Made by a program: the position numbers and the translations under genes
Notes under the pieces: generated by a model
What the model was told of the DNA's origin: nothing
The model's input: the letters and a program-made list of their open reading frames with translations, nothing else
Database searches by the model: none
Origin: Alphaproteobacteria bacterium
Lineage (GTDB): Bacteria > Pseudomonadota > Alphaproteobacteria > Bin95
Direction: 5' to 3'
NCBI GenBank assembly: GCA_965205265.1
Contig: CBDBGH010000003.1
Location: forward strand, 4,992,001 to 5,056,000
DNA length: 64,000 nucleotides
In this document: positions 2,592-53,924 of the stretch, piece by piece
Layout: every line of letters starts with the position of its first letter
Position numbering within the stretch: the stretch's first letter is position 1

Positions 2592-2614
2592 TTTTCAGCC
2601 GGTTGGCCTAACAT
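2592..2614 (+). promoter_or_regulatory. TTTTCA-N11-TAACAT promoter motif (first of 12 copies)
   Basis: The same spacing recurs upstream of many cargo genes; all copies are listed in findings. Confidence 0.65.
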
Positions 2615-2653
2615 CGGAGTTCTGGTCGTTCGCTTGCTGGGAGACCCGCTTCA

Positions 2654-3151
2654 ATGGCTCACCCCTACAATCACGCCGAGTCCTCGGTCCGCAAATATGG
2701 CGGCAGCATCGAGGACTATCTCGACATCCACAACTGGTTTGACGAGAGCAAGGCCTATATGGCGCATTTTCGGCACCGGGCGCTGCGCCACCATGCCCAG
2801 GGCATCTTCGAGTGCGAACGCACCTTCGGGGTGACTCGCACCAATTCGGCAGGAAGGATCGTCCCCGTTCGCTTCGTGGGCGAGCAGCATGTCAAGGAAG
2901 ACTGCGGGGGCATGATTCCCTGCCTCTCCGACTGGTTCCGCAATATCCGCCCGGAGCGCTGGATGGGCGCCGGACGACTCAAGGATGACGAGGACATCCC
3001 GGAGCAGCTGGAGGATCTATCGATGGAGGCCTGGCGGGCGGCCGTGGCCGACTGCAAGACGATGCTCGGCTATTCGGAGTGGGTCGAGATGCGCAAGGCC
3101 CGCCGGGAGGGTGCCCGGCTTGCCGGGAAGGCGATGGCGGACGCAGCCTGA
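2654..3151 (+). CDS. DUF6915-like protein
   Basis: MAHPYNHAESSVRKYGG...IHNWFDESK...FRHRALRHHAQGIF...GEQHVKED. His-rich family that usually neighbours DUF6878. Confidence 0.85.
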   Translation: MAHPYNHAESSVRKYGGSIEDYLDIHNWFDESKAYMAHFRHRALRHHAQGIFECERTFGVTRTNSAGRIVPVRFVGEQHVKEDCGGMIPCLSDWFRNIRPERWMGAGRLKDDEDIPEQLEDLSMEAWRAAVADCKTMLGYSEWVEMRKARREGARLAGKAMADAA

Positions 3152-3171
3152 AAAGGGAGGATGGGCCGATC

Positions 3172-3660
3172 ATGAGGTATTCGCGCGAGAACAGGCTGGA
3201 AGCGGCCCGCGAGGCGCTTCAGCACAATCTCTCGGTACTGGGTGCGTTTTTCGGCAAGGCCGGTATCGAGACTATCGACATCCCGTTCCGGGCGTCCGGT
3301 GGCAATGTGGTGTTCGAGGACCCGACCGTGACCGGCAAGGCGAAAGCGCCCGAGGTCATGACGGAGATGATCGACGGGTTGCAGGATGTGAGGTGGACCG
3401 GCGCCGGCCTCGAGCGCATCCGGACCCGTCCCCTGGCGCTCGAGGCCGCCCTGCGGGATGCCTGCACCTATGCGGCGGACCTCCGGGACAATAACTGGAA
3501 GGACGGCACCAAGGGGGCGGTCAAATTCTGGGAGGACGGCGTGATCTATCTGGAGATGGAGATCCTCCAGCCGACCAACGTCCGTGAGGAGTATTACCCT
3601 CGCCCGGCCCCGCTGGAGGCGCCCGCGGGTCTTCCCGAGCCCAGGCCGGAGGGCCTGTAG
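3172..3660 (+). CDS. DUF6878-like paralog (diverged)
   Basis: HNLSVLGAFFGKAGIETIDI...IDGLQ...NWKDGTKGAV. Confidence 0.7.
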   Translation: MRYSRENRLEAAREALQHNLSVLGAFFGKAGIETIDIPFRASGGNVVFEDPTVTGKAKAPEVMTEMIDGLQDVRWTGAGLERIRTRPLALEAALRDACTYAADLRDNNWKDGTKGAVKFWEDGVIYLEMEILQPTNVREEYYPRPAPLEAPAGLPEPRPEGL

Positions 3661-3663
3661 GCC

Positions 3664-5132: not shown

Positions 5133-5301
5133 CCTGCGAAGCGGCGACATCCTCTCCATCTCCTGAAGGGCGGGGCTTCCCGCTGTTGATGCGCCTGAAA
5201 CGGTCAAACCGGACGTCACATCGGGATTTCACGGCTTTCTGGTAGCGTGCGACAGGATCGGGCCGGCCGGGCGTCGGCCGGGCTGTCGAGGAGAAGGCAC
5301 C

Positions 5302-6156
5302 GTGACCCGGAAACTCTATCAGGACACGGAAAGTGCGGCGGTCTATCTGGAAGTGGACGGCGATGTTTTCGACGTGACGTACGAAACGGACGGGACAGCC
5401 CTGACGCTGCTGATCCGGGGATGTCCGTTCGCCCGTCGGCTTGAAGGGCCGGAGGCCGAGGCGCTGCGCGCCCCGGGCGGGCCGCTTTCTCCCGGGAGGG
5501 AAGACACCTGCCTGATCGCCGCCGTCGCGGACGAGGGCGAGGGCCCGGGCAGCCCGTTCGAACTCCATGTCTGGAACGAGCGGGTCGATGACAGGGCGGC
5601 GTTCCTGCTTGGCCTGGACTCGCGGCCTGTCCTGTATGGTCCGTCCTCGCTTGTGCCTCCGGTGGAGGCGGACGGAGCGGAAGTCATTGCCATCGGCGCG
5701 AAACGGCGCCGGGAGGCCGAGATAGCGGACCTCCACAACCTGTCGGTTCTCACCGCCGAGATGGAGCGTCTCGGCATAGAGACCGTCTCGGTCGAGTTCG
5801 ACGGCTATGGAGATGACGGCGAGATCACGGCGGTGAGCTATGCACCCAGGGCCCCGGAAGGGCGCACGATCGAGGGATTCCAGGATGAGGTAACGGATGG
5901 AGCCGGCAATTGGAGTCGCCAGGACGGCGAACCCATGTCGTTCGGGGCCGCGGTCCGGAACCTGGTTTACCGGCATCTCTGGATGAATTACGGGGGATGG
6001 GTCAATGATCTGGGCTCCGGCGGAACGGCGGAGATCACGAAGGAGGGCCTTCGCGTGCATTTCGGCCGCCGGATCAAGAGCGTCGAGTGGGAGCACGGCC
6101 CGCTCCATCGCCCGGCCCCGGCCCCGCTGCAGGGCGGCGCGGGGCCGGGCTTCTGA
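5302..6156 (+). CDS. Protein with unknown N-domain and C-terminal DUF6878-like domain
   Basis: HNLSVL...VEFDGYGDDGEI...YGGWVNDLGSGG. Confidence 0.8.
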   Translation: MTRKLYQDTESAAVYLEVDGDVFDVTYETDGTALTLLIRGCPFARRLEGPEAEALRAPGGPLSPGREDTCLIAAVADEGEGPGSPFELHVWNERVDDRAAFLLGLDSRPVLYGPSSLVPPVEADGAEVIAIGAKRRREAEIADLHNLSVLTAEMERLGIETVSVEFDGYGDDGEITAVSYAPRAPEGRTIEGFQDEVTDGAGNWSRQDGEPMSFGAAVRNLVYRHLWMNYGGWVNDLGSGGTAEITKEGLRVHFGRRIKSVEWEHGPLHRPAPAPLQGGAGPGF

Positions 6157-11128: not shown

Positions 11129-11129
11129 C

Positions 11130-23127: not shown

Positions 23128-23280
23128 GATCGCCGCTCCGGCCCAGGGACGGGTCGATGTTAACGGGCGGCGTAATTAGGCTCAAGGTGGCCGCATCACG
23201 ACCGCAAGGTCGGCGCTTTGCGTTTTCGCCCGGTCCGTGGATGATTGCGCTTACCCGAATGCCGCGGAGGAGATTCCGGG

Positions 23281-26404: not shown

Positions 26405-26504
26405 GTCGGTCTTCTCCCGGTCGTCATAAGGGACAACGACAGGGTCACTATCGCAGGAGCGCGTGAAAATTCCCAAGCGATGCCGGCACCCTTGTTTCCG
26501 CTTT

Positions 26505-31089: not shown

Positions 31090-31176
31090 GGCTTCGTACC
31101 TCTTCGCGACCGCCGCATATCATGGGCCGGTTTCGTGAAAACGCGAAAGATCTCGCGGGCGGGCGAGCCCGGGAAG

Positions 31177-32124: not shown

Positions 32125-32271
32125 CGGCAATGACCTTCTTGCGGGCACCCATCATGGGACGGTTCCATGAAATAGGGAAACCGTGGTTTGGGGTTTTCAC
32201 CTGGCCGGGGGATAGTCGCGCGGGGCCTGCGAGGCCCGCGGCCGCGGGCAGACCATTCGGGAGGATCGGAT

Positions 32272-36052: not shown

Positions 36053-38400
<2,348 letters not shown>

Positions 38401-38469: not shown

Positions 38470-38528
38470 AGGCGGCGGCCCGGAACTCCGGTCGGGCTAC
38501 GCCCTCCCTCCGTTCCGGGCCGCCGCCT
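38470..38528. repeat. 17-bp stem enclosing the same 25-nt core as 11794-11850
   Basis: AGGCGGCGGCCCGGAAC / GTTCCGGGCCGCCGCCT around TCCGGTCGGGCTACGCCCTCCCTCC. Confidence 0.8.
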
Positions 38529-40306
38529 TCCCCCGTCTCATCCTGATTGTCGCCAGCGTCTCAAGCTGATTGTCGCGCCGCATCTCCTCGACCTGCCAGA
38601 GCCCCTGGTAGTGAGCCATCACTTCGGTGACGCGCGCGTCGCGCAGATTGGTGATGACGCCGGTGAGCCCGTCCCATCGTGCGGCCTCGGCGATCTTCTC
38701 CGGGTTCACCGTGAGCCGTGCGTCGCCCTCGACGGCGATGAAGCGCTTCGCCCCGTGATTGGAGAGCAGTTCCCTGGGATTGTCGCTGCGGGCCAGCCTG
38801 TCGAGCAGGCGTTCCACCTGATGGCGGCGCTCGTGCGCGTCCTTGCGTGCGCGCTGGGGGCAGAAGACGACGATCAGGCGACGGCCCTTGTACTCCCACT
38901 CGCCGACCCGGCGGTCCTGTGAGCCCTCCAGCGGGGCATAGGTCCCGGGGTCGAGAACCTGCCCCAGCAGCGCGAGCGGCAGCTTGCGCAGCCGCGCGCC
39001 GACGACATACTCGCCGCCGATGGCGTCCATGGCGTCGAGGTTGTCGGCGCTCAGCATGCCCCGGTCGGCCACGCATACCGTGCGCTCCACCTGGTGGCGG
39101 CGCTGCATGTCCTGCAGGACCGGGACCATGCTGTGTCCCTCGTAGGTGGCGCCGGGGAAGACCTCGTAGCTGATCGGCAGCCCTTCGCGCGTCACCATCA
39201 GCGCCAGCAGAACCTGCGAGTCCTTGTGTTTGCCGTCCTTGCTGAAGCCGTGCTGGCGAAGCTCGTCCTCGGCGGCCGTCTCGAAGTAGAGCGTGGTGCA
39301 ATCGAAGAAGAGGATCGCGACCGGCTCCGGCAGCAGCGACCGGCTCGCCTCGCCGACGCGCGTGCGCAGTCGCTCGATCACCGTCGCGTCGAGCTGATCC
39401 ATCATCCGGTAGACCTTCTCGAGCGGAAGACTCACGCCGAAGTCCTCCTCGAGCCGGCGCACGCTGCCCCGCTTGCTGTCGGGGTTGGCTACCCGCGCCA
39501 TCACCACATGGAACAGCGCGTCATGGGAGGCCCGGTAGCGCGAGCGCGGCAGCAGCGCGTCGAGGCCCAGCAGCCGGTAGATCTCGCCATAGACCTCGTG
39601 GATGCCTGTGATCAGGCGCTGCTCCTCTTCAAGCTGCTTGAGGTCGACCGGGAGTTCCTCCTTGCCGTCCCCCCGGCGGCCGACACGGATCGCCTGCTCA
39701 GCGATCTTCTCGGGCGCAAACAATGCCGGCTGACGCTCGTCCTCCAGCTTCGCCTTGACGTACTCGCCGAGCTGCCTCAGGCGCTCGAGCTCGTCCTCGT
39801 CCATGGCCACGCCGACATGGCGGACGATGCGCTGTCGGACCTTGCCGCCGTCGCGCACGGCCTCGACGATCTGGACCGAGCGTCGCGGGCTGTTGGGGGA
39901 GGTCTTGATGCGCACGAACATGGGGGGAGTGTAGCGCGTGGCGGAGGCATTGACAGTCTCAAAGATTTACTAGGCACTACAACGCAGCTTGACCGCACCG
40001 CAACTGCCAACTCATTGGCTTTACTGAAAACTCCAGACGCGAGATCGGTCAGAAGTCAGCCCAACCGTCGAAGTCAGGACGGTCTTCCGGAAATCGCGCT
40101 CGCCCGCGGCGTAACGGGCGAGCAGGTCTTCGTCGGTCATGCGGGGCACCGTTCCCTCCGGGTTTCCGGCCAGTGCGCGCATTATGCGCCGGAGGTCTGA
40201 AAGGGCATAGCCGCGCTGGCGCCTTGGCTGCTTGCGGGTATTGCGGAGGTGCTTCGCGCGAATGGAAGCCGCCTGCCGGGCGGACGCGGGGATTCCCGCC
40301 TGTCGG

Positions 40307-40633: not shown

Positions 40634-40982
40634 CCCTTCCATCCCACCCAGGGTGGCGTCCGCAAGCGTAGCACAACCGGGCTGTCGAAGCGGGGAGTGG
40701 GGTTTGCGGTATGCCGAAATTATCCTGTAATCAAGAAGCGCTCGGAATTTTGTGGCACAATTCGCCTTTCGGAGTGGTGGCCGATAATTCCGGGAATTCC
40801 CGAATTCCAACAATTTATCCGAAATCGACCGCGCCGCAGACTGCGCGGTTGGCGTGTGGGCACGCTCCCGGAGCGCCGCCCGCGCACACGAACTGCGATG
40901 GCCTTCCCTTGATTTTCCGGCGTGTTTCGGCTACTTTGAGGCTCTCCGGGCTACATGCTTTCGGAAGGATCGGATCAAGACC

Positions 40983-41222
40983 ATGCGCCATCGCCACCTG
41001 GTCGATACGGAAGTTGCCGCCCGGTCGCCTACGGCGGTCGATGACATCATCGAGCGCGGCCTGATGGATGACTGGCTGAGGCTTCGCCGGTGGTGTACCG
41101 AGGATCCGGGGCTGCTGGACGTCGTGGAGCAGGTCTGCAACATGCATGTCGCCGATCCGGGCGCGCAGCGCCACCATTTCTGGCTGTTCTGGGCCCGGAT
41201 GCGCCGCGATGCGGCAGCCTGA
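40983..41222 (+). CDS. Small putative antitoxin
   Basis: DDIIERGLMDDW motif. Overlaps the downstream nucleotidyltransferase gene. Confidence 0.6.
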   Translation: MRHRHLVDTEVAARSPTAVDDIIERGLMDDWLRLRRWCTEDPGLLDVVEQVCNMHVADPGAQRHHFWLFWARMRRDAAA

Positions 41223-42009: not shown

Positions 42010-42212
42010 TGCTGCCGTCCCTGTCGCGCGAGAGGTAACGGGGCGCGAGAAAGGATGCGCCGCAGCCTGCCGTTCAGGTCGCCTTAATCCGGCCGGTTCA
42101 ACGCAATCGGGTCAGAGCGGTCTCAACGCCGATGCCGGATGTGCCACAAAATTCCGAGCGGCTCTCTGTAATCAGGAGTCGACGTCCTTTCGCAGGGATA
42201 CGGACCGGGGCC

Positions 42213-42482
42213 ATGCGCCATCGTCACCTGGTCGATACGGAGAGCGCCGCCCGCTCGCCGACTGCGGTCGATGACATCATCGAGCGCGGCCTGATGGAAG
42301 ACTGGCTGAGGCTTCGCCGGTGGTGCACCGAGGATGCCGCCCTGCTGGACGTCGTGGAGCGGGTCTGCAACATGCATTGTCGGGGATCCCGGCGCGCAGC
42401 GCCATCATTTCTGGTTGGGCTGGATCCGGATGCGCCGCGAGTCATGCTTGACGCCCATGGGCAGGGTATCCCTCCCCAATAG
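42213..42482 (+). pseudogene. Duplicate of the 40983 antitoxin gene with a frameshifted tail
   Basis: Near-identical up to VCNMH, then out of frame relative to copy 1. Confidence 0.75.
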
Positions 42483-42624
42483 CTGACCGAGAACTTGTTC
42501 CTGCGGGACTGCGTCCGGGTTCGACCGGCCGGGCCGTTGAGGTGCCGCAGGCGTTTTCGGTTTTCACGCCCTCAGCGCATGATGGAACCGGGATCGGGCA
42601 TCCGGCGGTGGAGAACGCGGGGCA

Positions 42625-43479
42625 GTGACAGGCAACAACGATGCGGGAGCGGTGCTGCGGACCGCCGCCTGGAAAGGCGATATCCCCGGCCTGAAGCAAT
42701 TGCTCGCCGACGGTGCGGACCCGGACGCCGTCGCGGATGACGGATGTGCGGCCCTGCATCTGGCGGCGGAGGCAGGCCGTCCTGAATGCATGCGGGTTCT
42801 GCTCGAGGCCGGAGCCGACCCGAATGTCCAGGATGATTCGGGTCTTGCCCCGCTGCATGTGGCCTCGCTCACCGGACATGTCGGAGCGATCACCCTTCTG
42901 GTGAAGGCCGGGGCCGATCCGGAAATGCGGGATGAAGAGCGCGGCGAGACACCGCTTTGCTGGGCGGTTGCCGGCGTCAACGAAATGGAGGCGGTTCGCG
43001 GCATATGCACTCTGGTCGGCGCCGGTGCGGACCCGAATGCGCGGAACGGGCTGGGTTGGACGCCGATGCAGAGGTTGTGCGCAAACCCCGGTCACGGAGA
43101 GGTCCTGCGGTGTCTTCTGGCCGCGGGCAGCGATCCGGATGGGACCGATGAGGATGGTTTCACTGTCCTGCACCATTTGGCACTTGCGCTTCCATTCGAC
43201 TCCGAAAGGCTCTCGATACTGGTTTCGGGCGGCGCCGATGTGAATGCCCGTGACGGGAAGGGGCGGACACCGCTGTATCTGGCGGCGGAGCGCGGACAGG
43301 TCGAATGGGTGCAGGCTCTTCTGGGAGTCGGCGCCGACCCGTCCATTCCGGGCAAGGCAGGCGTGCCGGTGGATGCGGTCATGCAGCGCCCGGCCGAAGG
43401 CGACACGGAACGGCGCGAGACGATTCTGGAGATGTTGCGCGAGGCGGTCGGGCACGCGGCGCCCGAACCGGGACCGTAG
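42625..43479 (+). CDS. Ankyrin-repeat protein
   Basis: ANK units. Confidence 0.95.
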   Translation: MTGNNDAGAVLRTAAWKGDIPGLKQLLADGADPDAVADDGCAALHLAAEAGRPECMRVLLEAGADPNVQDDSGLAPLHVASLTGHVGAITLLVKAGADPEMRDEERGETPLCWAVAGVNEMEAVRGICTLVGAGADPNARNGLGWTPMQRLCANPGHGEVLRCLLAAGSDPDGTDEDGFTVLHHLALALPFDSERLSILVSGGADVNARDGKGRTPLYLAAERGQVEWVQALLGVGADPSIPGKAGVPVDAVMQRPAEGDTERRETILEMLREAVGHAAPEPGP

Positions 43480-43483
43480 CGGA

Positions 43484-44422
43484 ATGATGGAGCGGAACTC
43501 TCTGCAGGACCGGTTGGAAGCGGCAGTGCAGGATGGCGATGTTGCGGCGGTGAGGACGCTGCTGGAATCGGGTGCGGACCCGAATGCCGGTAACGAAGAG
43601 GGCGCGACCGCCGTTCATGCGGCGGCCAGGGGCTCGAGTCCGGACTGCCTGCGCGTGCTTCTTGAAGCCGGAGGCAGTCCGGACGGCAGGACCGGTGAGG
43701 GGTGTTCATCATGGCTGGAGGCGCCGCTTGTTTCAGCGGCTTTCAAGGGACGGGCGGATATGGCGCTGGCGCTTGTCGAAGCCGGGGCGGACGTGAATGT
43801 GAAGGCCGGCAACCGGGAAACGCCGCTGCACTGGAGCGTGCAGGATGCCGAAGGCGTCCTGACGCGGCGTCTTCTCGAAGCCGGTGCGGATCCGAACGCC
43901 CGGAACCTCATGGGCGAAACCCCGCTCCACGCGGCCGCATGGGTGGGGAATGCCGACGGCATCCGGATACTCGTCGAGGCGGGCGCCACGGTGGATGCGG
44001 AGGACGATGAAGGCATGTCGCCGCTGGCCTGCGCCTCCATGGGCGCAAGCGGCTGCGTGCGGGCGCTGCTCGCGGCCGGGGCCGATGCGGGAGCGAAGGC
44101 CGGTCCGGGCCGGACAGCGCTGGTCCGGGCCTGCTGGCACGGGCTTGAGGACAATGTCCGCATGCTGCTCGAGGCCGGGGCCGACCCGGACGGTGTGGGC
44201 GACAGCGCTGAATCTCCGCTTCATGCTGCGGCCTGGGACGGCAACCCGGCCATTGTGGGGATGTTGCTTCAGGCCGGTGCAGACCCGGGGGTCACGGCCT
44301 CGGGCAGGGCCGGAACGCCCGGGGAGTGGGCGCGGGCCAGGGACAATGGCGAGGCCGCCGCTCTTCTCGGGGAAGCTCTCGGAAGCGACAGGGAGCAGGG
44401 CCGATGCGGGCCGGAAGCGTAG
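43484..44422 (+). CDS. Ankyrin-repeat protein
   Basis: ANK units. Confidence 0.95.
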   Translation: MMERNSLQDRLEAAVQDGDVAAVRTLLESGADPNAGNEEGATAVHAAARGSSPDCLRVLLEAGGSPDGRTGEGCSSWLEAPLVSAAFKGRADMALALVEAGADVNVKAGNRETPLHWSVQDAEGVLTRRLLEAGADPNARNLMGETPLHAAAWVGNADGIRILVEAGATVDAEDDEGMSPLACASMGASGCVRALLAAGADAGAKAGPGRTALVRACWHGLEDNVRMLLEAGADPDGVGDSAESPLHAAAWDGNPAIVGMLLQAGADPGVTASGRAGTPGEWARARDNGEAAALLGEALGSDREQGRCGPEA

Positions 44423-44469
44423 AAGCGGCGGATCGGGCAAGGGCCGACGCCGCCGGGATGGGGTGAGAG

Positions 44470-45860
44470 ATGAGTGAACCTGTGACGCGCGAGCGGAATC
44501 TCACGGCACGGCTGGTGCATGCGGTCGGAGCCGCCATCGACCGCGAGGCGGTCAAGAACGTCTCCGCGGCACTCGAGGCCGGGGCGGACCCGAACGGCGT
44601 CCATATCCTCGAATCCGGCGTCAGCAGGACGCCGCTGACGGCGGCGGTCGACTTCGCGAGCGTTCCCGCCGCGGTCAGTGTGCTTCTCGATGCCGGCGCC
44701 GATCCCGATCAGCCGGGACAGGACGGGGCGGCTCCCCTGCACATGGCTGCCCGCGACCCGGAAGGGACCGCTGCGGCGGCTGTCCTGTTGCTGAGGGCCG
44801 GCGCCGGTGTTGCTGTCCGGGACAGCAAGGGAGCCACGCCCCTTCACCATGCGTGCGGCGAAGGCAGCGAAGCGGTGGTGGCCGTGCTCCTTGCGTCCGG
44901 GGCGGATCCGGAAGCGAGGGACAACCGGGGCAGGACGCCGCTGCATCTGGCCTGCAGCGGCGGAGGCGTCGGGGCGCGGCTGCTTCTCGATACAGGGGCC
45001 GCTCCCGACCCCGTCGACGAAAGCGGACGGACTCCCCTCCACGATGCGGCGCTGGGAGGCTGGAGAGAGGCGGTAGAGATCCTGCTGGAGTTCGATGCCG
45101 ACCCGAACCGCCGGGCCGGACCGGCGGACCGGTCGCGCACGCCGCTGCATTTCCTGGCGGAGGGACGGGGCGGCGACATGGCCGCCCATGCCCTGCTCGC
45201 CGCCGGGGCGGATCCCGCGGCGACCGATGACAAGGGCGATCTGGCCCTGCATCTGGCGGCGCGGACGGGAGCGGACAGGGTGGCGCTGGCGCTCCTGGCG
45301 AGGAAGCATCCGCGGAAGTCCTCGACGGGGAAGGCCGCACGCCCTTGGCGATCGCGGTGGAAGAGGGCAATGGCGACATAGCCTCCTTCCTGGTGCATGC
45401 GGGAGCCGACCCGAACACGCGGTCCGAGTCGGACTGGACCGCCCTGTTCGGCGCCATAGCGGCCGACAGGGATTACGTGGTCGGGAAGCTTCTGGAAGCG
45501 GGCGCCGATCCCAACCAGAGGTTCGGCGAGGAAGCGGCACTGCACCAGGCCGTGGGCGCCCCGGTCGATATGCGGCCGGAGGAATGCGCCGCGGAGATGG
45601 TGAGGGTGCTTCTCGACGCCGGTGCGGATGCGAATGCGCGTGACGGTGCGGGCGTGACGCCGCTGCACCATGCTGCCCACCAGGGCCGGGTGGACTGCTT
45701 GAAACTCCTGCTCGCCGCCGGGGCGGATCCCGAGATGGCGGACAATGCCGGCCGGCGTCCGGCGGATGAGGCCGCGCACGGTCCGGCCCACGACGAGATA
45801 TCCGGCCTTCTTGCACAGGCGGCCCGAATTCGGGCCGGGTCGCCGGATCCCGGCATGTAG
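44470..45860 (+). pseudogene. Ankyrin-repeat gene with a 1-nt frameshift near 45303 (or a sequencing error)
   Basis: The ANK register continues as SAEVLDGEGRTPLAIAVEEG in the second frame. Confidence 0.8.
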
Positions 45861-45878
45861 AAGAAAGGGAGACAGGCA

Positions 45879-46802
45879 ATGGTCGATTTCCGGGATATGC
45901 GGGGGAACGAAATACGCCGGTTCCTGGCGGATGGCGGCAGGATCGATGCCAGGGACGACATATTCGGCGAGACGCTCCTGCATGTCGCCGTTCGGCTGGA
46001 CGATGAGGGCCTTGTCAGGGAACTGCTCGCCGCCGGGGCCGATCCCAATGAAGGAGACGGGAAGGGGAGGACACCGCTCTTTGCGGCGGCCCACATCGGG
46101 GACGCGTCCGTGGTGAAGGCCCTGCTGGAAGGCGGGGCCCGGCCGGACGAGCGCGATGTGGAATATACGACCGCGCTGCATCTGGCGGCGCAGGGAGGCA
46201 GTGTCGCCAACATCGGGCTTCTGCTCGCCGCCGGCGCCGATCCGGAAGCGCGGGACGAGTTGGGCGCAACGCCATTGCATCTGGGGGCCCTGAACGGTCG
46301 GCTCGACAGCGTGCAGGCGCTTCTCGGGGGAGGGGCCGATGCGAGCGCACGCACGAGGGCCGGCGGCGAAACGGCGCTTCACTGGGCGATGACGGTCGAG
46401 GGAGGCCGGGGTGAGGAGATTGTTGCCGCTCTTCTTGGGGCGGGAGCGGATCCGAATACGCGGAACGGGATGGAAGAGACGCCGCTTCACTGGGCGGCGT
46501 CGGGCCTCGAGGAAGGCGGAAGGATCGCGGCGCTTCTGGAAGCCGGGGCCGACCCCGGCGCGCGCAACAAGTGGGAGGCGACTCCCCTGCATGAGGCCGC
46601 CCAGGCGCGCAAGGCGGACGCCGTGCGGATCCTCCTCGCCGCGGGCGCCGATCCCGATGCCACGGACGACGAGGGTAAGACGCCCATGGAGTGGGCGATG
46701 CCGGTCGTGGGCGACAATTCGGAAGTGATGGGCCTGCTGGAGAAAGCGGCGGCAGACCGCAGAGCCGCCGCCGGACTTCCGGAGCCCGTGTCGGGTGGCT
46801 GA
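45879..46802 (+). CDS. Ankyrin-repeat protein
   Basis: ANK units. Confidence 0.95.
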   Translation: MVDFRDMRGNEIRRFLADGGRIDARDDIFGETLLHVAVRLDDEGLVRELLAAGADPNEGDGKGRTPLFAAAHIGDASVVKALLEGGARPDERDVEYTTALHLAAQGGSVANIGLLLAAGADPEARDELGATPLHLGALNGRLDSVQALLGGGADASARTRAGGETALHWAMTVEGGRGEEIVAALLGAGADPNTRNGMEETPLHWAASGLEEGGRIAALLEAGADPGARNKWEATPLHEAAQARKADAVRILLAAGADPDATDDEGKTPMEWAMPVVGDNSEVMGLLEKAAADRRAAAGLPEPVSGG

Positions 46803-46914
46803 CCTTGCCAGGAGCTGCGGGTGATGGCGCGTGCCAACGCTTCCGGATCGGCGCTTCCCCGTGCCTTCCCGGTTCAGGGACTACAGGGCGGCCTCGTGGA
46901 AACCCGGGCGCCGG

Positions 46915-47259
46915 TCAGCCTTTGCCGGCCTCGGCGTTCCCGTCTGGCGCCGCCGGATCGGCAGCGAACAGTCGCACGGCCTTCCCGATGAAGTCCCTGG
47001 CTTCGTCGTCCGACAGGTATCCGGCGTCGAACGGTCCCTCGCCATAGGGCTCGCCATACATCCAGACCTCCTCGGCGGGAAGGTGGATCGGGTGGGTCGG
47101 GGAGCGGTGGCGCGATATCTCCACGGTCCACGCACTGCCGCGCGCCCTGAAGTAGAAGCGGTGTCCACCGCAGCAGGTCCCCTCGGCCTGCACGGGGCAA
47201 TAGCCGCTGATCGTCTCGATCTCGAGCTGCGGCCGGGTGAGCTTTTCCCGGAGTCCCAT
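46915..47259 (-). CDS. Hypothetical protein
   Basis: Conserved-looking GYCPVQAEG...FYFRARG motif. Confidence 0.6.
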   Translation of the reverse strand: MGLREKLTRPQLEIETISGYCPVQAEGTCCGGHRFYFRARGSAWTVEISRHRSPTHPIHLPAEEVWMYGEPYGEGPFDAGYLSDDEARDFIGKAVRLFAADPAAPDGNAEAGKG

Positions 47260-47317
47260 GTGCGTTTTCCCGTCCGGTCCCGTTTCCGTGTCCGACGACG
47301 CCCGCCTCACGCGGTCT

Positions 47318-47824
47318 TCAGGTCTGGAGTCCCGGTTCCGGGAGGTCCTCGCCGACAGGAGCGGGGGTTGCCTGCCAGGATGCGCTGTCCGCCTGGATCG
47401 ACCGTTGGCCGATATCGATGTCGGCGGAGAGGCCCGGTCCGGAGCGGCTGATGGTGATCCGCCCCTCGGATCCGGCTTCCGCGTCCCAGCCGCCGAAGTC
47501 CGCCTGCAGCATGGCGTCGCCCATCATGGCGAGGGCCTGGTCCAGGCGCATGGGCGGACAGGCCTCGCGGGTGGCGTCCTGGTAATAGGATCCGACGACG
47601 CGCTGGAGGCCGGTAACGGTAATGCCCCTGGCATCCTCGACATCGAGTTGGAGGTCGCCGGCGTCCGCCGTGTGGCCGAGATGCGTGAGTGCGATGACAT
47701 GCGCGTCCATGCGCCCGTCGAATTCGACCTCCATCGTGTCGATGGCGAATTCCTCGAACAGCTGGTCGAGCACCGAAAGGTTGTGGGCGCTCGCTGTGCG
47801 CATTTGTTGCTCGCCTGTCGGCAT
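47318..47824 (-). CDS. DUF6878-like protein
   Basis: HNLSVL...VEFDG...VTGLQ...DFGGWDAEAGSEG. GGAGGAG RBS. Confidence 0.8.
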   Translation of the reverse strand: MPTGEQQMRTASAHNLSVLDQLFEEFAIDTMEVEFDGRMDAHVIALTHLGHTADAGDLQLDVEDARGITVTGLQRVVGSYYQDATREACPPMRLDQALAMMGDAMLQADFGGWDAEAGSEGRITISRSGPGLSADIDIGQRSIQADSASWQATPAPVGEDLPEPGLQT

Positions 47825-47986
47825 GCGGGGGCTCCTCCGGCCATCGATTCCGCAAGGCTAGGGGAAACGCCTGAAAACCGGAAGCCGGGCATGCCGCGCG
47901 GCGGAAATAACACACAATCGGATTGACACGATAAGCGGATTATCATAGCAATCCGTTCCGACCCTGGAACGAGGGGGAGACAGCCG

Positions 47987-49192
47987 ATGGGCCGCCGGAC
48001 GGTTCAGGTCGATTATGGCGAGACCGTCAGGATGATGGAGCCGATGGTCCTGTCCCCGGGCGACGACGGGATGGACAGGCTTGTCCACCTGGTGGTGGAT
48101 ATGGACCGCGGGAACGGGGACCTGCAGCGGCTTCTTCCGGAGGCGCTGAAGCGGCCGCTGATCGCCCTGCTGCGGGTTGTCGATGCCCATTTCGGCGACG
48201 CGATGGGGATGCTGCATCCCCTGCATCCGGAGGACATCGAAGGAGGCCTCCAGGGAAGGTTCCTGAACTGCGCACGGGACAGGGCCCGGCAGTGTGAGGC
48301 GGTCGCCCATGTGCGGGCCGCGGAATGGCTCGACCGGGAGACGGCAAACTATCACCCCGCCGGCGAATACGTCCTCGGCACACTTCACCGGTTGCTCGGT
48401 GAGGAAGGGTTCCCGGAAAACCGGCCTGCATTCGACCCGGGCCGCTACCGGAGGGACACTGTGTCCGTGGGAGCGCACGATCCCGTGGGCCCGGAGGACG
48501 TGCCGCGCTGCATGCGCCGCTTCGAGGACACCTATACGGTCCTGTCACCGTCGGATACGATGATGAATGCGGCGGCGATGCATCACCGCCTGCTGTGGAT
48601 CCATCCGTTCCGGGACGGGAACGGGCGAGCCGCCCGTCTGGTGACACGGCAGTTCCTGTCCGGCGCCATGGGGTCGCTCTACTGGTCGCTGGCACGGGGA
48701 TTGGCCCTGGAGAAGCCGGCCTATTTTTCCTTCCTGAAGGTCTGCGACCGCGGGCGGTTCGACAGCAGGGACGGGCCGGGCCCTCTGAGCCGGGGAGCCC
48801 TGGTGGCGTTCACGGAGTGGTTCCTGACGGCCTGCATCGGCCAGATCGGCTTCATGACCGAGTGCTGCACGCCATCGGTTCTGCAGGACCGGATCCGGCG
48901 GTGGGCGGCGGAGGAAGAGGCGGCAGGGCGTCTTCCCGAGGAAAGCGGAACGGTGCTGGTCGCCGCGATGGATGAAGGTTGCCTGACGCGGGGCCGGGTA
49001 GGGGAGATCGCGGGCCGCGGCATCCATCACGGTCGTCTGATCGTCAAGATGCTGCAGGCGCGCGGGCTGCTGGCAACGAGGCACGGTCCGCGCTCGCCGC
49101 TGCATCCGGCGCTGCCGGTTTCGGCGGCTCGGGCCTGGTTTCCGGGCCTCTTCCCGGCATTGCAACAGGCGGAGGAAGGAAAAGCCGCATGA
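47987..49192 (+). CDS. Fic-family protein with C-terminal wHTH
   Basis: HPFRDGNGRAAR. TTGACA at 47924 lies inside the inverted repeat GGATTG...CAATCC. Confidence 0.9.
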   Translation: MGRRTVQVDYGETVRMMEPMVLSPGDDGMDRLVHLVVDMDRGNGDLQRLLPEALKRPLIALLRVVDAHFGDAMGMLHPLHPEDIEGGLQGRFLNCARDRARQCEAVAHVRAAEWLDRETANYHPAGEYVLGTLHRLLGEEGFPENRPAFDPGRYRRDTVSVGAHDPVGPEDVPRCMRRFEDTYTVLSPSDTMMNAAAMHHRLLWIHPFRDGNGRAARLVTRQFLSGAMGSLYWSLARGLALEKPAYFSFLKVCDRGRFDSRDGPGPLSRGALVAFTEWFLTACIGQIGFMTECCTPSVLQDRIRRWAAEEEAAGRLPEESGTVLVAAMDEGCLTRGRVGEIAGRGIHHGRLIVKMLQARGLLATRHGPRSPLHPALPVSAARAWFPGLFPALQQAEEGKAA

Positions 49193-50052
49193 GTGAAACG
49201 GAGAAGCCATACTCCCCGCACGACCGGATGGTTGGACGTATGAGCCCAGGGGAGTGCGCCGCCCTGGCGGAAGCGATAGGACGGCGCCGCGCCGAACTGG
49301 CAAACCGTGACGCCGCCATCGTCCTCCGGTCCGCCGACTTTCGGCCGTTGCCGGAGACATATCCCTACGATCCCGAGAGGAATGTCTGGCGGTTCGATCC
49401 GGATCTGTGGACCCTGACCTATGACTACTATGAAATCGACCTGGAAGGCGACAGGTTCCGGACCGAGGCGGGCGCCCTGGGCTCGGTATTCGATATCGGC
49501 AGGAAAACCTGGGCCTGTCTGCCAATGGTCACGACGGACCTGCTTGCCGCGCTCGACTGGCTCCAGCCCTGGCACCCGGACAGGGTGCCGGCCGGCCTCG
49601 ACGAGTCGATGTCCGGAGCGGCCGCCCGGAGGGCGGCCAACCCGAAGCCGACCTGGCTGGAAACCGCCGTCCGGAAGCTGCGGACAGGGAGGTATTCGAT
49701 AGAACGAAGGGGTCTCGGGTGCCGCTATATGGGTCGGGACTGGGAGTTCAATTGGGATGGGCTGCTCGAATTCAATTCCAGGCTCGGCGCGCGCCGGCAC
49801 TTTTTCCGGGTCGTGTCGCATCCGCTCAGGCCGGGCGAGGACTGGGGCGGCGGCACATGGGGAAATTCCGGCGCCCTGTCGGATTCCCACAGCGAAGAGG
49901 AACGCCGCGCGGCAATCGCCGCAAAGTGCTGGGATATCATCGACAACGAGCCGGGGATCACGTTCGGAATGGTACAGGAAGCCTTGCGGGAGATCGATCT
50001 GGAGTTGATCCGGACGCCTTGCATCGCCCCTCGGCAAGAGGAGACCGGTTGA
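49189..50052 (+). CDS. Hypothetical protein
   Basis: ATGA overlap with fic. YEIDLE motif. Confidence 0.6.
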   Translation: MSETEKPYSPHDRMVGRMSPGECAALAEAIGRRRAELANRDAAIVLRSADFRPLPETYPYDPERNVWRFDPDLWTLTYDYYEIDLEGDRFRTEAGALGSVFDIGRKTWACLPMVTTDLLAALDWLQPWHPDRVPAGLDESMSGAAARRAANPKPTWLETAVRKLRTGRYSIERRGLGCRYMGRDWEFNWDGLLEFNSRLGARRHFFRVVSHPLRPGEDWGGGTWGNSGALSDSHSEEERRAAIAAKCWDIIDNEPGITFGMVQEALREIDLELIRTPCIAPRQEETG

Positions 50053-50089
50053 CCGGGCCCGCTTCCCGGAACCGGACAAGACGCGGGCC

Positions 50090-51118
50090 ATGAACCGTAT
50101 CCTGCAGGGCGTTATCGCGCCGAGCGCGGCCCTTGCCGTCAATCCCCGGCTGATGCGGCACTGGGCCGATCTGGACCGTGCGCCGCAGGTTGGCGACGTG
50201 GTGTATGGACGGGTCCTGCATATCGGGGAACATGACAGCCTCGAGAACCGCCACGGGCGCGTTCACATGATTGCTCCCGGCAGCCGGGCCGTCTTCGTGT
50301 ACGGCGCGCGCTATGCGCCGGACGTCTTCGAGGGCCGCGTGCCGGAGCATCGGCTCCGCGAGGTGGACCTTCTGGCGAAGTCCGGCCTCATCGGGGTCGT
50401 GCACAGCAAGAACCATCTTGTGAAGGACCCGAGCAGGATCGAGATACTCGGCCATGTCGTGGACGGCAACGGGGCTCCCCTGAACACGCGCGACCATCCG
50501 GTCGCCATGCCGAAAAGACCCCTGCGGCGCGTCCGTCGGCGCGCCAGGATGGTCCTCAATGTCGGGACCGCGATGAACTCGGGGAAGACGACCTCGGCGA
50601 TCACCTGCTGCGCCGCCCTCACCGGCCTGGGCCATGCCGTGCGGGCAAGCAAGGTGACGGGGACGGCGAGCCTGAAGGACATCTTCCACATGCAGGACGC
50701 CGGTGCCGAGATCGTGTCCGACTTCACTTCGCTGGGTTTTCCCTCGACCTACCTCCTCGGTGAGGAGGAACTGTTCGGCATCTTCGAGAACCTGGATGCC
50801 AAATACGGCAACGATCCGGCCAAGTTCTGGGTGGTGGAACTGTCGGACGGCATCCTGCAGCGCGAGACCGCGATGCTGCTGCAGAATGCCTGGCTGCGCT
50901 CGCGCATCCACCGCCTGGTGTTCTCCGCCGCCGACGTTTTCGGGGCGCTCGGCGGGATACACGTCCTGCGCGACCGCTTCGGCCTTGTGCCCGATGCGAT
51001 TTCGGGCCGCTGCTCCTCCTCGCCGCTGTCGGTGCGGGAGCTGGCGGAGCAGACCGATATACCGGTCTTCGACAATATGCGCCGGGATCTTCGCCGGCTG
51101 GCGGAGATCCTGCTGTAG
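50090..51118 (+). CDS. DUF1611-like P-loop protein
   Basis: YGARYAPDVFEG, GTAMNSGKTT, KVTGTA, VELSDGILQRETA. Confidence 0.8.
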   Translation: MNRILQGVIAPSAALAVNPRLMRHWADLDRAPQVGDVVYGRVLHIGEHDSLENRHGRVHMIAPGSRAVFVYGARYAPDVFEGRVPEHRLREVDLLAKSGLIGVVHSKNHLVKDPSRIEILGHVVDGNGAPLNTRDHPVAMPKRPLRRVRRRARMVLNVGTAMNSGKTTSAITCCAALTGLGHAVRASKVTGTASLKDIFHMQDAGAEIVSDFTSLGFPSTYLLGEEELFGIFENLDAKYGNDPAKFWVVELSDGILQRETAMLLQNAWLRSRIHRLVFSAADVFGALGGIHVLRDRFGLVPDAISGRCSSSPLSVRELAEQTDIPVFDNMRRDLRRLAEILL

Positions 51119-51215
51119 CGTCCCCCTCTGCCCGCACCGATCCAGGAGCATTCGGTTTTTCAGCGGAACGCCGTAGAGTGGGCCGAAGTCGAACGGCGAG
51201 GAGGCGGGTGCCGTC

Positions 51216-52286
51216 ATGGACAGCTACATCGAGAATGGCGAGCGGTGGTCGGTCCTGCGTTTCGACGCCGACGGGGTCGAGGAACTGATGGCCCATGCAC
51301 GGTCGTGCGACCGCCACAGCATGGGTTTCAGCGAACGCGAGCGCGTCTATGGCAAGGGGGTCTGGGACCCCCAGCCCGACGAGGAGGAGAGGGCGCCGAC
51401 GACACTGGTTCTGGTCAAGAACGAAGGCATCTACCTGGTGTCGAGCGGGGTGCCGTATATGCCTGATCCGGACGATCCGAAATGTGCGAAGGTCGTCTAT
51501 GCCCAGGGATACGACCCGACCAAGGCGGACCGGATGCAGGTCTGGGATGCCGCCCGGGCGGCGGTGGGCGGTGCCGACTTCTCGGAGTATTTCGATCTGG
51601 ACACCTTCGAGGCGCCGCTGGCCGCCGCCCGGACGAAGGCGGGCCGCGGCATGGTCGAGATGCATGTCTCGGAAACCGGCATCAAGATGATGACGCTTGC
51701 GCCGGCCGGCGCGGCCCCGCCCCGGCCGGCCGCAGCCGAAAGCGCTCCGGTTCAGGCGCAGGCGAAACCGGAGGAAACGGTCGCGGAGCTGTATCGGACC
51801 TCCCGCGAGAAGTTTGCGGCCTGGGCCGCCTGGCTCCTGTTGGCTTCGCCGAGCCCGCTGGTGCAGTGGCAGGGTGACGATTTCGTCCGGGACGCCGGGG
51901 TGCTGGCCCTGAAGGCTTCACAGGGAGAGCGGGTCACGCAGAAGGCGGTGACGGATCTGCTCCGCACATACCGGCGGCTCGGGAAAGAGCAGGACAGCGC
52001 CATGGACCCGCTCTCCAGCGCGCGGCGGGCCGCAATGTGGTTCCTGAGGACACTGGACCCCAAGAAGGACGACATGGAGTGCCCACACAACATGGTTGCC
52101 GCGACGTCGCGGGCCGCATTGATCGGCAACGCGAACGCTGCCGCGATGCCATCGGTGGACCAGCGCCGCGAATATCATGACTGGCTGTACAAGACCATGA
52201 ACGATGCGGCGAACTCGATCAGGGAGACAGCAGGCAAGCGGGCGCGGCAGGACGATGCCCCGTCTCCCGACGGGCCGGGCCTCTGA
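51216..52286 (+). CDS. DUF3085-like domain protein with C-terminal extension
   Basis: LVLVKNEGIYL...YAQGYDP...GGADFSE. Confidence 0.75.
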   Translation: MDSYIENGERWSVLRFDADGVEELMAHARSCDRHSMGFSERERVYGKGVWDPQPDEEERAPTTLVLVKNEGIYLVSSGVPYMPDPDDPKCAKVVYAQGYDPTKADRMQVWDAARAAVGGADFSEYFDLDTFEAPLAAARTKAGRGMVEMHVSETGIKMMTLAPAGAAPPRPAAAESAPVQAQAKPEETVAELYRTSREKFAAWAAWLLLASPSPLVQWQGDDFVRDAGVLALKASQGERVTQKAVTDLLRTYRRLGKEQDSAMDPLSSARRAAMWFLRTLDPKKDDMECPHNMVAATSRAALIGNANAAAMPSVDQRREYHDWLYKTMNDAANSIRETAGKRARQDDAPSPDGPGL

Positions 52287-52308
52287 AGCCTCCCCGGGCG
52301 TCCGGCTT

Positions 52309-52626
52309 TCAGGGGGATGGACTGGGGTCGTCGGGTTCCTCCTCCCGGGAGGAGAGGTCGTCAATACGTTCGAGATCGACTTCCTCGCTTGCCATCCAGG
52401 TGTCGTACTGGAGCTGCAGGCGGCCCCAGTAGTCGGATGACATGCCGAGCGCCTTGCCCAGGCGAACGGAGGTCTCCGGGGATATCGCCCGCCGCCCGCG
52501 TATGATCTCGTTTATGCGGCCGGGAGGCACATCCATCGTCTTCGCCAGACGGTATTGCGTGATACCGAGTTCCTCAAGGATTTCCGCGAGATGCTGTCCG
52601 GGGTGAATTTGGTAAGGGGGTGTCAT
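52309..52626 (-). CDS. higA: HigA-family antitoxin (orphan)
   Basis: IHPGQHL...GITQYRLAK...RINEIIRGRRAIS...YW..LQ..YD. Confidence 0.9.
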   Translation of the reverse strand: MTPPYQIHPGQHLAEILEELGITQYRLAKTMDVPPGRINEIIRGRRAISPETSVRLGKALGMSSDYWGRLQLQYDTWMASEEVDLERIDDLSSREEEPDDPSPSP

Positions 52627-52838
52627 TTTTCGGGTCCCGGATAGGTTGAAATGGCCCCATGAAAGAGGCATTCGTGATGAACCTTGCCGTGCTGCGGCCA
52701 TAACGACAAGTATTACGCTTGACATTCATATATATCGAACGTGCATAGAGGCGGCGCGGATGGCGACCACCATCCTTCCGGTTACGGCGTTTGCCGCGGG
52801 ACCCGCCGGCCTGCCTTCACGATGCGCATCGGGGCGAC

Positions 52839-53777
52839 TCAGACCCCGGGGCCGGGCTCGTCCCCTGCGTCGTCGAGCGTGAGGTCCCTGTGGGAGGCAA
52901 GCGCGACCGGAACCGGGCCGGCATCGGTGTCGATCCGGAACTCGGCGGCCAGCTCCCAGGCCCGGGGATCTTCGGGAAAACAGCAGGGATCGGCGCCGGC
53001 GCCGAAGGGCGGGCCGCCCTCGAGAAAGAGCAGGCGTCCGTCGGCCAGACGCATGAAATCCGCCGTAAAGCTCCTGCTGTCGCGGGGCCAGTGCCGATCC
53101 GCCCCGGGCGGATAGACGATGTCCCCTTCCGGCAACTGTTCGGAAAGCCGGCAGGAAAGGTTCACGGCCTCCGTGAGGTCCGTGCGGACCCGGGCCCCGT
53201 CGGGCAGGTCGCGCTGCGGATAGTAGCTGGAGACCCCGCGAGGCCGCCCGTCGAGCATGAAGACGCGATACTCGACCGGATAGCCGTCGACGAGGTCGGC
53301 CTGGACCCAGGGGCGGCGCCAGACGGTCACGCCTTCTCCCGGATATTCGAACAGCAGCTCGAAGGCCCGCGGGTCGTCGACCGTGAACCCGTCGAGAAAG
53401 CGCTCGGACCATTCCGGACGTCCCCGCGAAAGGTGGAGCTTCACGTCCATCGGGGCGCACATGTCCCAGCGCAGCATGGTTCGGGGCTGCTTGGCATTCT
53501 CGATGGCGGAGAAAAAGCGCCTGATCTCCTCGACCTGCCCGTCGTCCGGTTCCTCCCAGTTCAGGAGGGATTCGATGTCTCCCGTGACCACAGGCTCCGC
53601 GGGAACATGGTCGATGCCGGCACGCTCGCAGGCCTCGATCCAGGCGCCGAGCGACACGAGCCGGAAGCCGTGGGCGTCCTTCCAGGCGTTGCGCGGCGGA
53701 TTGCGCCGCGCCTCCTCAAGCCGGGCCTCTATGGCCTCCATCGGAAGGCGCTTCGGCTTTCGCTCACTGTCGCTCAT
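52839..53777 (-). CDS. ATP-grasp fold protein (Cdc123/R2K-like)
   Basis: RRPW, EYRVF..G....SSYY, FTADF, FLEG.P, DPCCF. Confidence 0.65.
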   Translation of the reverse strand: MSDSERKPKRLPMEAIEARLEEARRNPPRNAWKDAHGFRLVSLGAWIEACERAGIDHVPAEPVVTGDIESLLNWEEPDDGQVEEIRRFFSAIENAKQPRTMLRWDMCAPMDVKLHLSRGRPEWSERFLDGFTVDDPRAFELLFEYPGEGVTVWRRPWVQADLVDGYPVEYRVFMLDGRPRGVSSYYPQRDLPDGARVRTDLTEAVNLSCRLSEQLPEGDIVYPPGADRHWPRDSRSFTADFMRLADGRLLFLEGGPPFGAGADPCCFPEDPRAWELAAEFRIDTDAGPVPVALASHRDLTLDDAGDEPGPGV

Positions 53778-53924
53778 TCAGGCCCACCCCACAAACAGTG
53801 ACACGATGACCACCAGAGCCGATAGTTCCCCGATGGCCGGCTAGGTTATCCGCCTGTCGATTCCAGGAGTCTGGGCAGGAGGCGTGAAAACGCCAAATTG
53901 CGGTCCAGGGGGGAGGAAAGACGA

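Follow-up and report, generated by a model that had tools for sequence, protein, structure and literature searches.

A 64-kb stretch of an alphaproteobacterial genome (GenBank assembly GCA_965205265.1, here G000; 5.70 Mb in three contigs) was analyzed together with the rest of that genome and its relatives. The stretch, hereafter the window, spans positions 4992001-5056000 of contig CBDBGH010000003.1 (C3) and is part of an island of ~0.55 Mb, at about C3:4.75-5.32 Mb, that encodes a Dot/Icm-like type IVB secretion system (T4BSS). Genes and operons of this island are preceded by a short box, TTTTCA, placed 11 nt upstream of a −10-type hexamer, nAnnnT. The box keeps a strict geometry, is restricted to the island, is linked to the genes behind it and is conserved beside related T4BSS genes in other genomes, and it is almost certainly a real, functional cis-element associated with promoters. 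The island appears to switch on its secretion machine and the proteins likely to be secreted by it together, and we consider it likely that a factor other than sigma, encoded by the element, reads the box.

The initial annotation, made from the window alone, had listed 12 such sites upstream of cargo genes. All 12 were present at the listed coordinates and strands, each with the 11-nt spacer and a NANNNT hexamer; the total, however, is not 12 but ~70 sites over ~0.55 Mb. The pattern TTTCA-N12-A-N3-T matches the window 14 times compared to 1.26 expected, and none of 100 dinucleotide shuffles reached 14. Eleven of these matches are listed sites, the twelfth listed site being a TTTTCG variant at 23223 that scores 17.7 with a position weight matrix (PWM), a fixed matrix built from island sites. 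The remaining three matches (52664 and 63640 on the minus strand, 61141 on the plus strand) look like chance occurrences, since the one at 63640 lies inside a coding region and the other two have PWM scores below 14. A start codon about 25-95 nt downstream had also been claimed; a same-strand open reading frame (ORF) does follow all 12 sites, with hexamer-to-start distances of 26-148 nt for 11 of them by our own gene calls. At the site at 40202, the only called gene is an insertion sequence (IS) transposase 259 nt away, and a pentapeptide-type start codon could be seen by eye ~40 nt downstream.

Unbiased evidence for restriction to the island comes from regular-expression counts. TTTCA-N12-A-N3-T has 175 matches genome-wide, 167 of them on C3 and 81 of these at 4.75-5.35 Mb, a region that makes up about one tenth of the genome; elsewhere the pattern occurs at a chance rate. 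The strict pattern TTSGNNTTTTCA-N12-A-N3-T matches the source genome 20 times, always within 4.796-5.208 Mb (reversed control, 0), is absent from each of 16 same-genus genomes and gives 0-4 matches in 24 more distant relatives, about their reversed-control level. With the PWM, 68 of the 69 genome matches scoring at least 20 fall within C3:4.75-5.35 Mb, a contrast with some circularity, given that island sites served to train the matrix. These counts support the proposal that the box is an element-specific regulon signal and not the general promoter of the host. Iterative refinement of the matrix over the whole genome was dropped, as it drifted onto unrelated repeated sequence.

The matches are also tied to genes. 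PWM matches lie at most 150 nt upstream of a same-strand start in 66 of 94 cases in the island and in 4 of 65 outside it. In upstream regions of up to 150 nt, the sense pattern precedes 56 of 342 island genes compared to 1 of 2338 other C3 genes (Fisher p = 7e-51), and the same island regions contain 10 antisense matches, mostly partners of divergent pairs, and no match to the reversed pattern. In 300 dinucleotide shuffles of these regions, the mean was 0.93 (sd 0.98, maximum 5), so that the positional and orientation enrichment over shuffled intergenic DNA proposed as a check on the window sites held when run island-wide. TTTTCA itself is the top enriched sense-strand hexamer upstream of island genes (64 of 342, versus 68 of 2338 elsewhere on C3).

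An alignment not conditioned on the −10 hexamer reads tTTsG-nr-TTTTCA-N11-nAnnnT. In 91 sense TTTCA occurrences collected from island upstream regions with no −10 demanded, A is found at +17 in 75 and T at +21 in 61; relative to TTTCA, T stands at −1 in 64, T's fill −8 to −6 in 48-58 and G occupies −4 in 65. The 11-nt spacing measured in the initial annotation is correct, and the motif is wider than stated there, including the T-rich −8 to −6 positions and the G at −4. Columns outside the box, the TT(G/C)G and the −10 carry about zero information. When nAnnnT is set at −12 to −7, TTTTCA falls at −29 to −24 and TTT[G/C]G at −36 to −32. The −35 position at 17-bp spacing is T in 53 of 91, T in 58, then G in 46 or C in 27, and the next base is G in 65, where the consensus has A. 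This TT(G/C), a weak −35-like element, sits exactly where the −35 of a 17-bp spacer belongs, and the box appears to lie within a canonically spaced sigma-70-type promoter and not, as first proposed, in place of the −35 with an 11-nt spacer. A−11 and T−7 are both kept, as in a sigma-70-type −10, even without conditioning on them. Over 69 sites, the core elements are weak, matching TTGACA mostly at 2-3 of six positions and TATAAT at 3-4 of six. Promoter activity and a transcription start are predicted from this layout; box and start codon are most often 50-70 nt apart, so that leaders would be roughly 25-45 nt long.

A box in this position could also be the operator of an element-encoded global repressor sitting in the spacer, so that the ~70 units would be silent at rest and expressed in a burst upon loss or inactivation of the repressor, for example when the element enters a new cell or is induced, as is the case for global repressors of large plasmids and of integrative and conjugative elements. 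We regard this explanation as unlikely but as a serious rival. It fits the fixed position of the box between −35 and −10 in many promoters of one mobile element, and among global repressors of plasmids, KorA of IncP, for one, binds operators whose place in the promoter is fixed. Given the canonically spaced TT(G/C) and the sigma-70-type −10, host polymerase might fire unaided at these promoters, and among the island proteins are a second LexA, which has an S24 peptidase domain, and several toxin-antitoxin and helix-turn-helix (HTH) proteins. The weakness of the core, however, is unexpected for promoters that need silencing. Most such repressors bind palindromes, whereas the box is asymmetric, with no dyad, hairpin or complementary covariation around it (69 sites; all tested column pairs |z| < 2); the box overlaps the spacer, and no palindromic operator over the core elements was found at these sites. 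The single orientation relative to the gene, given by the 56 sense and 10 antisense matches above, also speaks against a repressor.

The genes behind the box were collected from 70 intergenic sites with PWM scores of at least 17, located −10 to 260 nt from a same-strand start. The first genes after the box encode pentapeptide-repeat, ankyrin, DUF6878, DUF6915, DUF3085 and RNase-T-like proteins, a cytosine methylase and many proteins without a known family. The units had been described as cargo only; instead, a gene run containing DotM and DotL is headed by a box (site 4931306), and a weaker box precedes dotD. Machine genes of the type IVB system and many putative substrate genes are found under one fixed-distance cis-element.

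Products of these units frequently end in Pro/Glu-rich sequences such as ...GLPEPSPA, ...EESPSP and ...DDAPGPG. By a crude rule (at least three Pro, an acidic residue and PxP in the last 14 residues), such tails occur in 104 of 576 island proteins compared to 103 of 4371 other C3 proteins, and within the island in 56 of 153 genes of motif-headed runs compared to 48 of 423 others. Ankyrin, pentapeptide and DUF6878 proteins with such C-terminal tails number ~100 in the island. The association of the box with tail-bearing proteins claimed earlier is real, and it is not exclusive. The tail is probably a secretion signal, and the proteins that bear it would then be secreted.

The variety of these genes bears on a further explanation, that no specific factor is involved and that the T-tract box is either an intrinsic spacer or DNA-shape aid to host polymerase or the relic of one duplicated upstream region. 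TTTT runs can alter spacer geometry, and many downstream genes belong to expanded families (pentapeptide, ankyrin, DUF6878) that were possibly duplicated with their promoters. Against this, the T-run is followed by a C and an A that vary no more than the T's do, relatives keep another specific word (see below), and host genes make no use of the box (1 of 2338). The box precedes such unrelated genes as those for DUF6915, DUF3085, RNase-T-like and cytosine methylase proteins and the dotM/dotL operon, and the sequences flanking it are unrelated between sites. Because the non-box columns are uninformative and the downstream genes are of unrelated families, the likeness of the sites does not come from paralogous duplication, and this explanation is very improbable.

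The content of the island was surveyed by Pfam scans of 573 called proteins, 67 from the window and, in batches of 148, 105, 137 and 116, the others from elsewhere in C3:4.74-5.345 Mb; the later batches lacked some repeated IS copies, and about half of the scanned proteins were without any family. Dot/Icm-like type IVB genes include those for DotH/IcmK, DotI/IcmL, a TrbI/DotG-like protein, DotD, T4SS_TraI, two T2SSE ATPases, DotM and a 1178-aa DotL-like coupling protein. The island also carries duplicated housekeeping genes, for RpoD, DnaA, DnaB with DciA, DnaG, a GyrB-like protein, topoisomerases, LexA, RF-1, NrdJ, ThyX, HU and GapR, and a tmRNA gene, together with two CRISPR-Cas systems, many IS copies, tyrosine recombinases, a Rep3 initiator and dozens of pentapeptide-repeat, ankyrin and DUF6878 genes. 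The chromosomal copies of rpoD and lexA lie at 3.35 Mb and 0.19 Mb, and the chromosomal dnaA is probably at 3.10 Mb, where a DnaA domain gave a weaker match. The duplicated marker genes may be the origin of the 7.28% 'contamination' figure of this genome. None of 40 relatives, of which 16 belong to the same genus, yielded the DotL-like gene, and these 40 genomes also lack the motif; the absence of both indicates that the region is a horizontally acquired, very large T4BSS element. The DotL-like protein itself (L011:75-3608, minus strand; C3:4924915-4928451) has a ~300-residue insertion straight after its Walker A GSGK that is kept in relatives, as judged by alignment. The borders of this insertion are intein-like by inspection, and Pfam gave no intein or Hint family match.

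Conservation was followed through DotL. The one relative of this protein in the genome collection is in a metagenome-assembled genome (MAG) labelled Boseongicola sp. (52% identity, on a 49.9-kb contig). The pattern TTT-N5-TTTCA-N12-A-N3-T occurs 11 times in this MAG compared to once reversed, with five of the occurrences on the T4BSS contig, and 29 times in the source genome compared to once for the reversed control, all inside the island. The looser TTTCA-N12-A-N3-T was too unspecific in this lower-GC MAG (215 versus 90 for the control), and the longer pattern was used instead. In the stretches of the MAG that were examined, genes begin 40-60 nt after the sites, similar tails are found on several products and a DUF6915 homologue closes one operon.

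A profile of the two DotL proteins retrieved 15 metagenome loci at 34-67% identity, in which the island PWM gave 13 matches scoring at least 17 and none with the reversed matrix. These loci are dominated by a variant octamer, TTTTCGCA, present 110 times in 281.6 kb compared to eight times for the reversed word; a subset of copies in front of genes keeps N11 and nAnnnT (14 versus 0 reversed) and yielded a profile of 39 sites. The copies of this octamer in L045-L059 are mostly intergenic and on both strands, and they may be binding sites with uses beyond promoters. At the orthologous RNase-T-like gene, the box with N11 and nAnnnT is kept in the source genome, the MAG and six of the nine metagenome loci that have a homologue, with spacers of differing sequence. 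Searching with the island DotL-like protein by tblastn also returned plasmids, including the Methylorubrum extorquens AM1 megaplasmid and those of Xanthomonas, at 32-37% identity. The 32.7 kb around the DotL homologue (36%) of the AM1 megaplasmid showed no box enrichment, with one TTTTCA, no TTTTCGCA and two PWM scores of at least 14, indicating that the signal belongs to a narrower element clade with DotL identity of at least 46%. The box travels with one type IVB clade and changes its sequence between lineages, which fits a co-evolving, element-encoded reader.

The explanation that we favor is a dedicated promoter class of the T4BSS island that works with an island-encoded positive factor; as a whole, we rate it as evenly balanced between being right and being wrong, and the narrower statement that an element-encoded factor other than sigma acts positively stands slightly below an even chance. 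Each promoter has a putative weak sigma-70-type −35 (TT[G/C]G), a near-invariant TTTTCA and a −10 in which only A−11 and T−7 are strongly kept. We infer a factor because the −35 and −10 are poor while the box is the most conserved part, and positive control by an element-encoded protein because the asymmetric, strictly oriented box accompanies these weak elements and co-varies with the lineage of the element. RNA polymerase holoenzyme would need an island-encoded DNA-binding factor occupying −36 to −24, beside or in place of sigma region 4, as a class-II-type or MotA-like positive factor. Such a factor would co-activate dotM/dotL, the other T4BSS operons and ~60 units for proteins of the ankyrin, pentapeptide-repeat, DUF6878 and other kinds. 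Both this putative factor and the positive sign of its action are proposed from the layout of the promoters.

Several observations weigh against this explanation. The initial annotation had proposed an activator or sigma-appropriation factor, and none of the 573 scanned proteins matched the MotA or AsiA families, a winged-helix response-regulator family or any other obvious activator family; with about half of these proteins family-less, a non-homologous MotA/AsiA analogue is compatible with the scan. The winged-helix family PF00486 (Trans_reg_C) has six matches in the genome and none in C3:4.74-5.35 Mb. The neighbors of DotL that are conserved between loci encode T4BSS parts and not regulators, and the spacer is also a classical repressor position. 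Most TTTTCGCA copies in the metagenome relatives have no −10 at a fixed distance and the dotD promoters of relatives have a gap of 14 nt instead of 11, so that the strict geometry is not family-wide. In addition, start codons were taken from our own codon-usage gene caller, making the distances to them approximate.

Candidates for the reader were sought by several routes. Lenient Pfam and NCBIfam scans of 12, 12 and 3 conserved or neighboring proteins without known family returned no DNA-binding activator. A host response regulator may be the reader, but the box accompanies the T4BSS into a MAG of another labelled genus, which makes this less probable. Three island proteins are candidates by location alone: a 351-aa DnaA-domain-IV protein divergent from a box promoter (L007:18394-19446, minus strand), a 72-aa protein corresponding only to the C-terminal part of GcrA, a part that binds sigma-70, beside a NikA-like ribbon-helix-helix protein, and the LexA paralogue (L030:16807-17490, minus strand), which is 63% identical to the chromosomal LexA. 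In the related loci examined, no homologue was found for the DnaA-domain-IV, GcrA-C-like, LexA-paralogue, STAS or HTH proteins, the exception being an HTH_7 protein that matches a recombinase-like ORF there.

Given that the island carries its own rpoD, the reader might be the RpoD paralogue itself (624 aa, C3:4874643-4876517, minus strand), whose holoenzyme would prefer promoters with TTTTCA in the spacer, with no additional DNA-binding protein. A PF04542 search gave four matches in the genome, two RpoD-type and two RpoH-like, of which only the RpoD paralogue is in the island; no alternative sigma was found there. The paralogue is full length, with regions 1.1-4 by Pfam, scores 755.7 bits against the cut-off of 555 for the NCBIfam RpoD equivalog and is 63% identical to the chromosomal RpoD. 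The box promoters have the A−11/T−7 and the TT(G/C) at 17-bp spacing that a sigma-70-type protein would use, the gene for the paralogue has no box upstream, and the positions at which it departs from the host copy are concentrated in region 1.1, the non-conserved region, region 3.0/3.1 and the C-terminal end. Region 2, however, is 100% identical to that of the host and the recognition helix of region 4.2 essentially so, with no changed DNA-reading residues evident, and sigma is not known to read bases at −29 to −24. The MAG that shares TTTTCA has one RpoD match and one RpoH-like match only, although this MAG may be incomplete, and RpoD may merely belong to the housekeeping set of the island, in which DnaA, DnaB, DnaG, GyrB, LexA, RF-1 and tmRNA are also duplicated. 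We hold a role of the paralogue as sole reader to be rather improbable, though a serious rival to the favored explanation. A bolder version of the favored explanation, in which an element-encoded factor acts on the box, is that a family of giant type IVB elements in marine and sponge-associated Alphaproteobacteria has a private transcription code: an element factor, possibly with the RpoD paralogue, would redirect polymerase to a −30 box (TTTTCA or TTTTCGCA), which together with the Pro/Glu-rich tail would define ~100 co-expressed and co-exported substrates. We consider this speculative and unlikely as a complete account.

The box promoters of the window stand before genes of many kinds. On the plus strand, TTTCGGCA-TTTTCA-N11-TAACAT (2585..2614, PWM 24.1) lies 39 nt before a DUF6915 gene (2654-3151) followed by DUF6878-family genes, and ATTTCA-N11-TAGCGT (5219..5248, PWM 23.0) lies 53 nt before a gene (5302-6156) whose product has a C-terminal DUF6878 and a Pro-rich tail. 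The variant TTTTCG-N11-GATGAT (23216..23245, plus strand, PWM 17.7) precedes an ankyrin gene (23281-23976) by 35 nt. TTTTCA-N11-GATAGT on the minus strand (26447..26476, PWM 26.8) is 42 nt before a gene without a Pfam family (25838-26404), and TTTCGCG-TTTTCA-N11-CATGAT (31119..31148, minus strand, PWM 28.0) is 29 nt before a pentapeptide and DUF7007 gene (30310-31089; tail ...GLPEPSPA). Two sites stand back to back: ATTTCA-N11-CATGAT (32151..32180, minus strand, PWM 25.6), 26 nt before a pentapeptide gene (31177-32124), and TTTGGGG-TTTTCA-N11-GATAGT (32187..32216, plus strand, PWM 27.8), 148 nt, by our own start call, before an ankyrin gene (32365-33225).

Further along, CTTTCA-N11-CATAAT (40181..40210, minus strand, PWM 19.4) is followed ~40 nt downstream by a truncated pentapeptide-type ORF and then by an IS transposase gene (38497-39921), which, within 38497-40210, occupies the place expected for the rest of the truncated gene. 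TTTTCGG-TTTTCA-N11-CATGAT (42554..42583, plus strand, PWM 25.4) lies 41 nt before a five-gene ankyrin run (42625-46802). A gene without a family (47318-47824, tail ...DLPEPGLQT) is preceded at 30 nt by TTTTCA-N11-TAGCCT (47855..47884, minus strand, PWM 25.3), a DUF3085 gene (51216-52286, tail ...APSPDGPGL) at 36 nt by TTTTCA-N11-TAGAGT (51150..51179, plus strand, PWM 26.4), and the gene at 52839-53777 (tail ...GDEPGPGV) at 90 nt by TTTGGCG-TTTTCA-N11-CAGACT (53868..53897, minus strand, PWM 26.8). The contrasting promoter named in the initial annotation, TTGACA-N17-TATTAT, is present at 60968..60996 on the minus strand, outside the regulon, upstream of the cas3 gene of a type I cas operon (53981-60735, minus strand) that encodes GSU0053/GSU0054-family proteins and a Cas3-like helicase. 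The second CRISPR-Cas system, ~75 kb downstream, has a Cas9-like protein (RuvC_III and HNH, 1056 aa), Cas1 and Cas2 (L021:8400-14739, minus strand).

Other features of the island were noted in passing. Genes for eukaryote-like or host-targeting-type domains, namely GPP34 (Golgi phosphoprotein 3), a VbhA-like antitoxin with a Fic protein and more Fic-domain proteins, are located at L029:18902-19558 (plus strand), L013:3124-4241 (plus strand) and window positions 47987-49192 and 61540-62565. A 71-aa NikA-like ribbon-helix-helix protein followed by the 72-aa GcrA-C-like protein, which has a Pro/acidic tail (L026:11586-12009, minus strand; C3:5220982-5221405), may indicate where the transfer origin of the element is located. 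Tyrosine-recombinase genes form two clusters of four (L023:2975-8003 and L031:15120-19589); SLAM-family and large genes of no known type stand beside the L023 cluster, and the region around it, at 5.14-5.18 Mb, is without box sites. Many IS copies are identical, among them a 551-aa DDE transposase, IS21 pairs and IS605-type TnpB. A second, palindromic word family (ATCGGAT/ATCCGAT/AATCGGA/TCCGATT) is enriched upstream of island genes, in 17-19 sequences compared to 9-14 in a roughly sevenfold larger chromosomal set, and could be an IS end or an operator. Window positions 34001-54000 also occur in two DNA-type contig runs (X5, X3).

If the box works as a regulatory signal, it provides a simple sequence rule by which all co-regulated genes of a Dot/Icm-like system can be picked out, and one that would apply where effectors and regulators are uncharacterized: in an alphaproteobacterium of high GC content, in a sponge-type MAG and in environmental contigs. 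The box connects the machine with its putative substrates (the tail-sharing ankyrin, pentapeptide, DUF6878 and Fic-neighborhood proteins) and with their control, three things usually discovered separately, and it raises the testable question of what use a primary sigma factor of its own is to a mobile island. Should a private transcription code exist, it would be a sigma-appropriation-like mechanism outside phages, and box and tail together would let effector repertoires be read straight from metagenomes.

Among known systems, the closest functional parallel is the control of Legionella and Coxiella Icm/Dot effector genes by PmrA and CpxR. As described in PMC6989116, PmrAB activates ~40 effector genes and CpxRA controls ~30 as well as several icm/dot genes; the regulators are winged-helix proteins, and a related regulator has a conserved element at an exact spacing from the −10 (PMC6989116). 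Like these regulons, the island box covers both machine genes and putative substrates. The island differs in having no winged-helix response regulator, in its GC-rich alphaproteobacterial host and in that the whole system is on one mobile island, with the signal absent elsewhere in the genome. The sequence of the island box is not known to resemble the PmrA and CpxR sites.

In geometry, the closest parallel is the middle promoter of phage T4, which has a MotA box near −30 and a sigma-70 −10 and depends on sigma appropriation by MotA and AsiA. The likeness to a MotA box suggested in the initial annotation stands for the geometry: both have a box at about −30 (here −36 to −24) located 11-13 bp from a sigma-70-type −10 and a poor −35, and both serve the private gene set of a mobile genetic entity. 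It does not extend to the reader, as no MotA or AsiA family match was seen among the scanned island proteins; the box sequence is also different, the island keeps TT(G/C) at −35, and the setting is a T4BSS island and not a lytic phage. It is the reader protein that keeps the island box out of both the PmrA/CpxR and the T4-type class.

Circuits of large plasmids and of integrative and conjugative elements, such as KorA/KorB of IncP and the SetCD/AcaCD boxes of SXT and IncC, also use an element regulator and fixed sites in many promoters to coordinate transfer and accessory genes. Most of their operators are palindromes or are placed over the −35 or upstream of it, whereas the island has an asymmetric 6-mer in the spacer with no dyad, and its ~70 promoters and ~0.55 Mb are far larger. 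MPF_I/IncI-type and other plasmid type IVB systems, including those of M. extorquens AM1 and Xanthomonas, share the DotL-type coupling protein, and the type IVB region of M. extorquens AM1 differs in showing no box enrichment. A description of this box regulon was not found in the open literature, the scope of which excluded subscription papers and supplementary files. A promoter box that defines a regulon for a secretion system and its substrates is a known kind of arrangement, of which the island box is a variant new to that literature.

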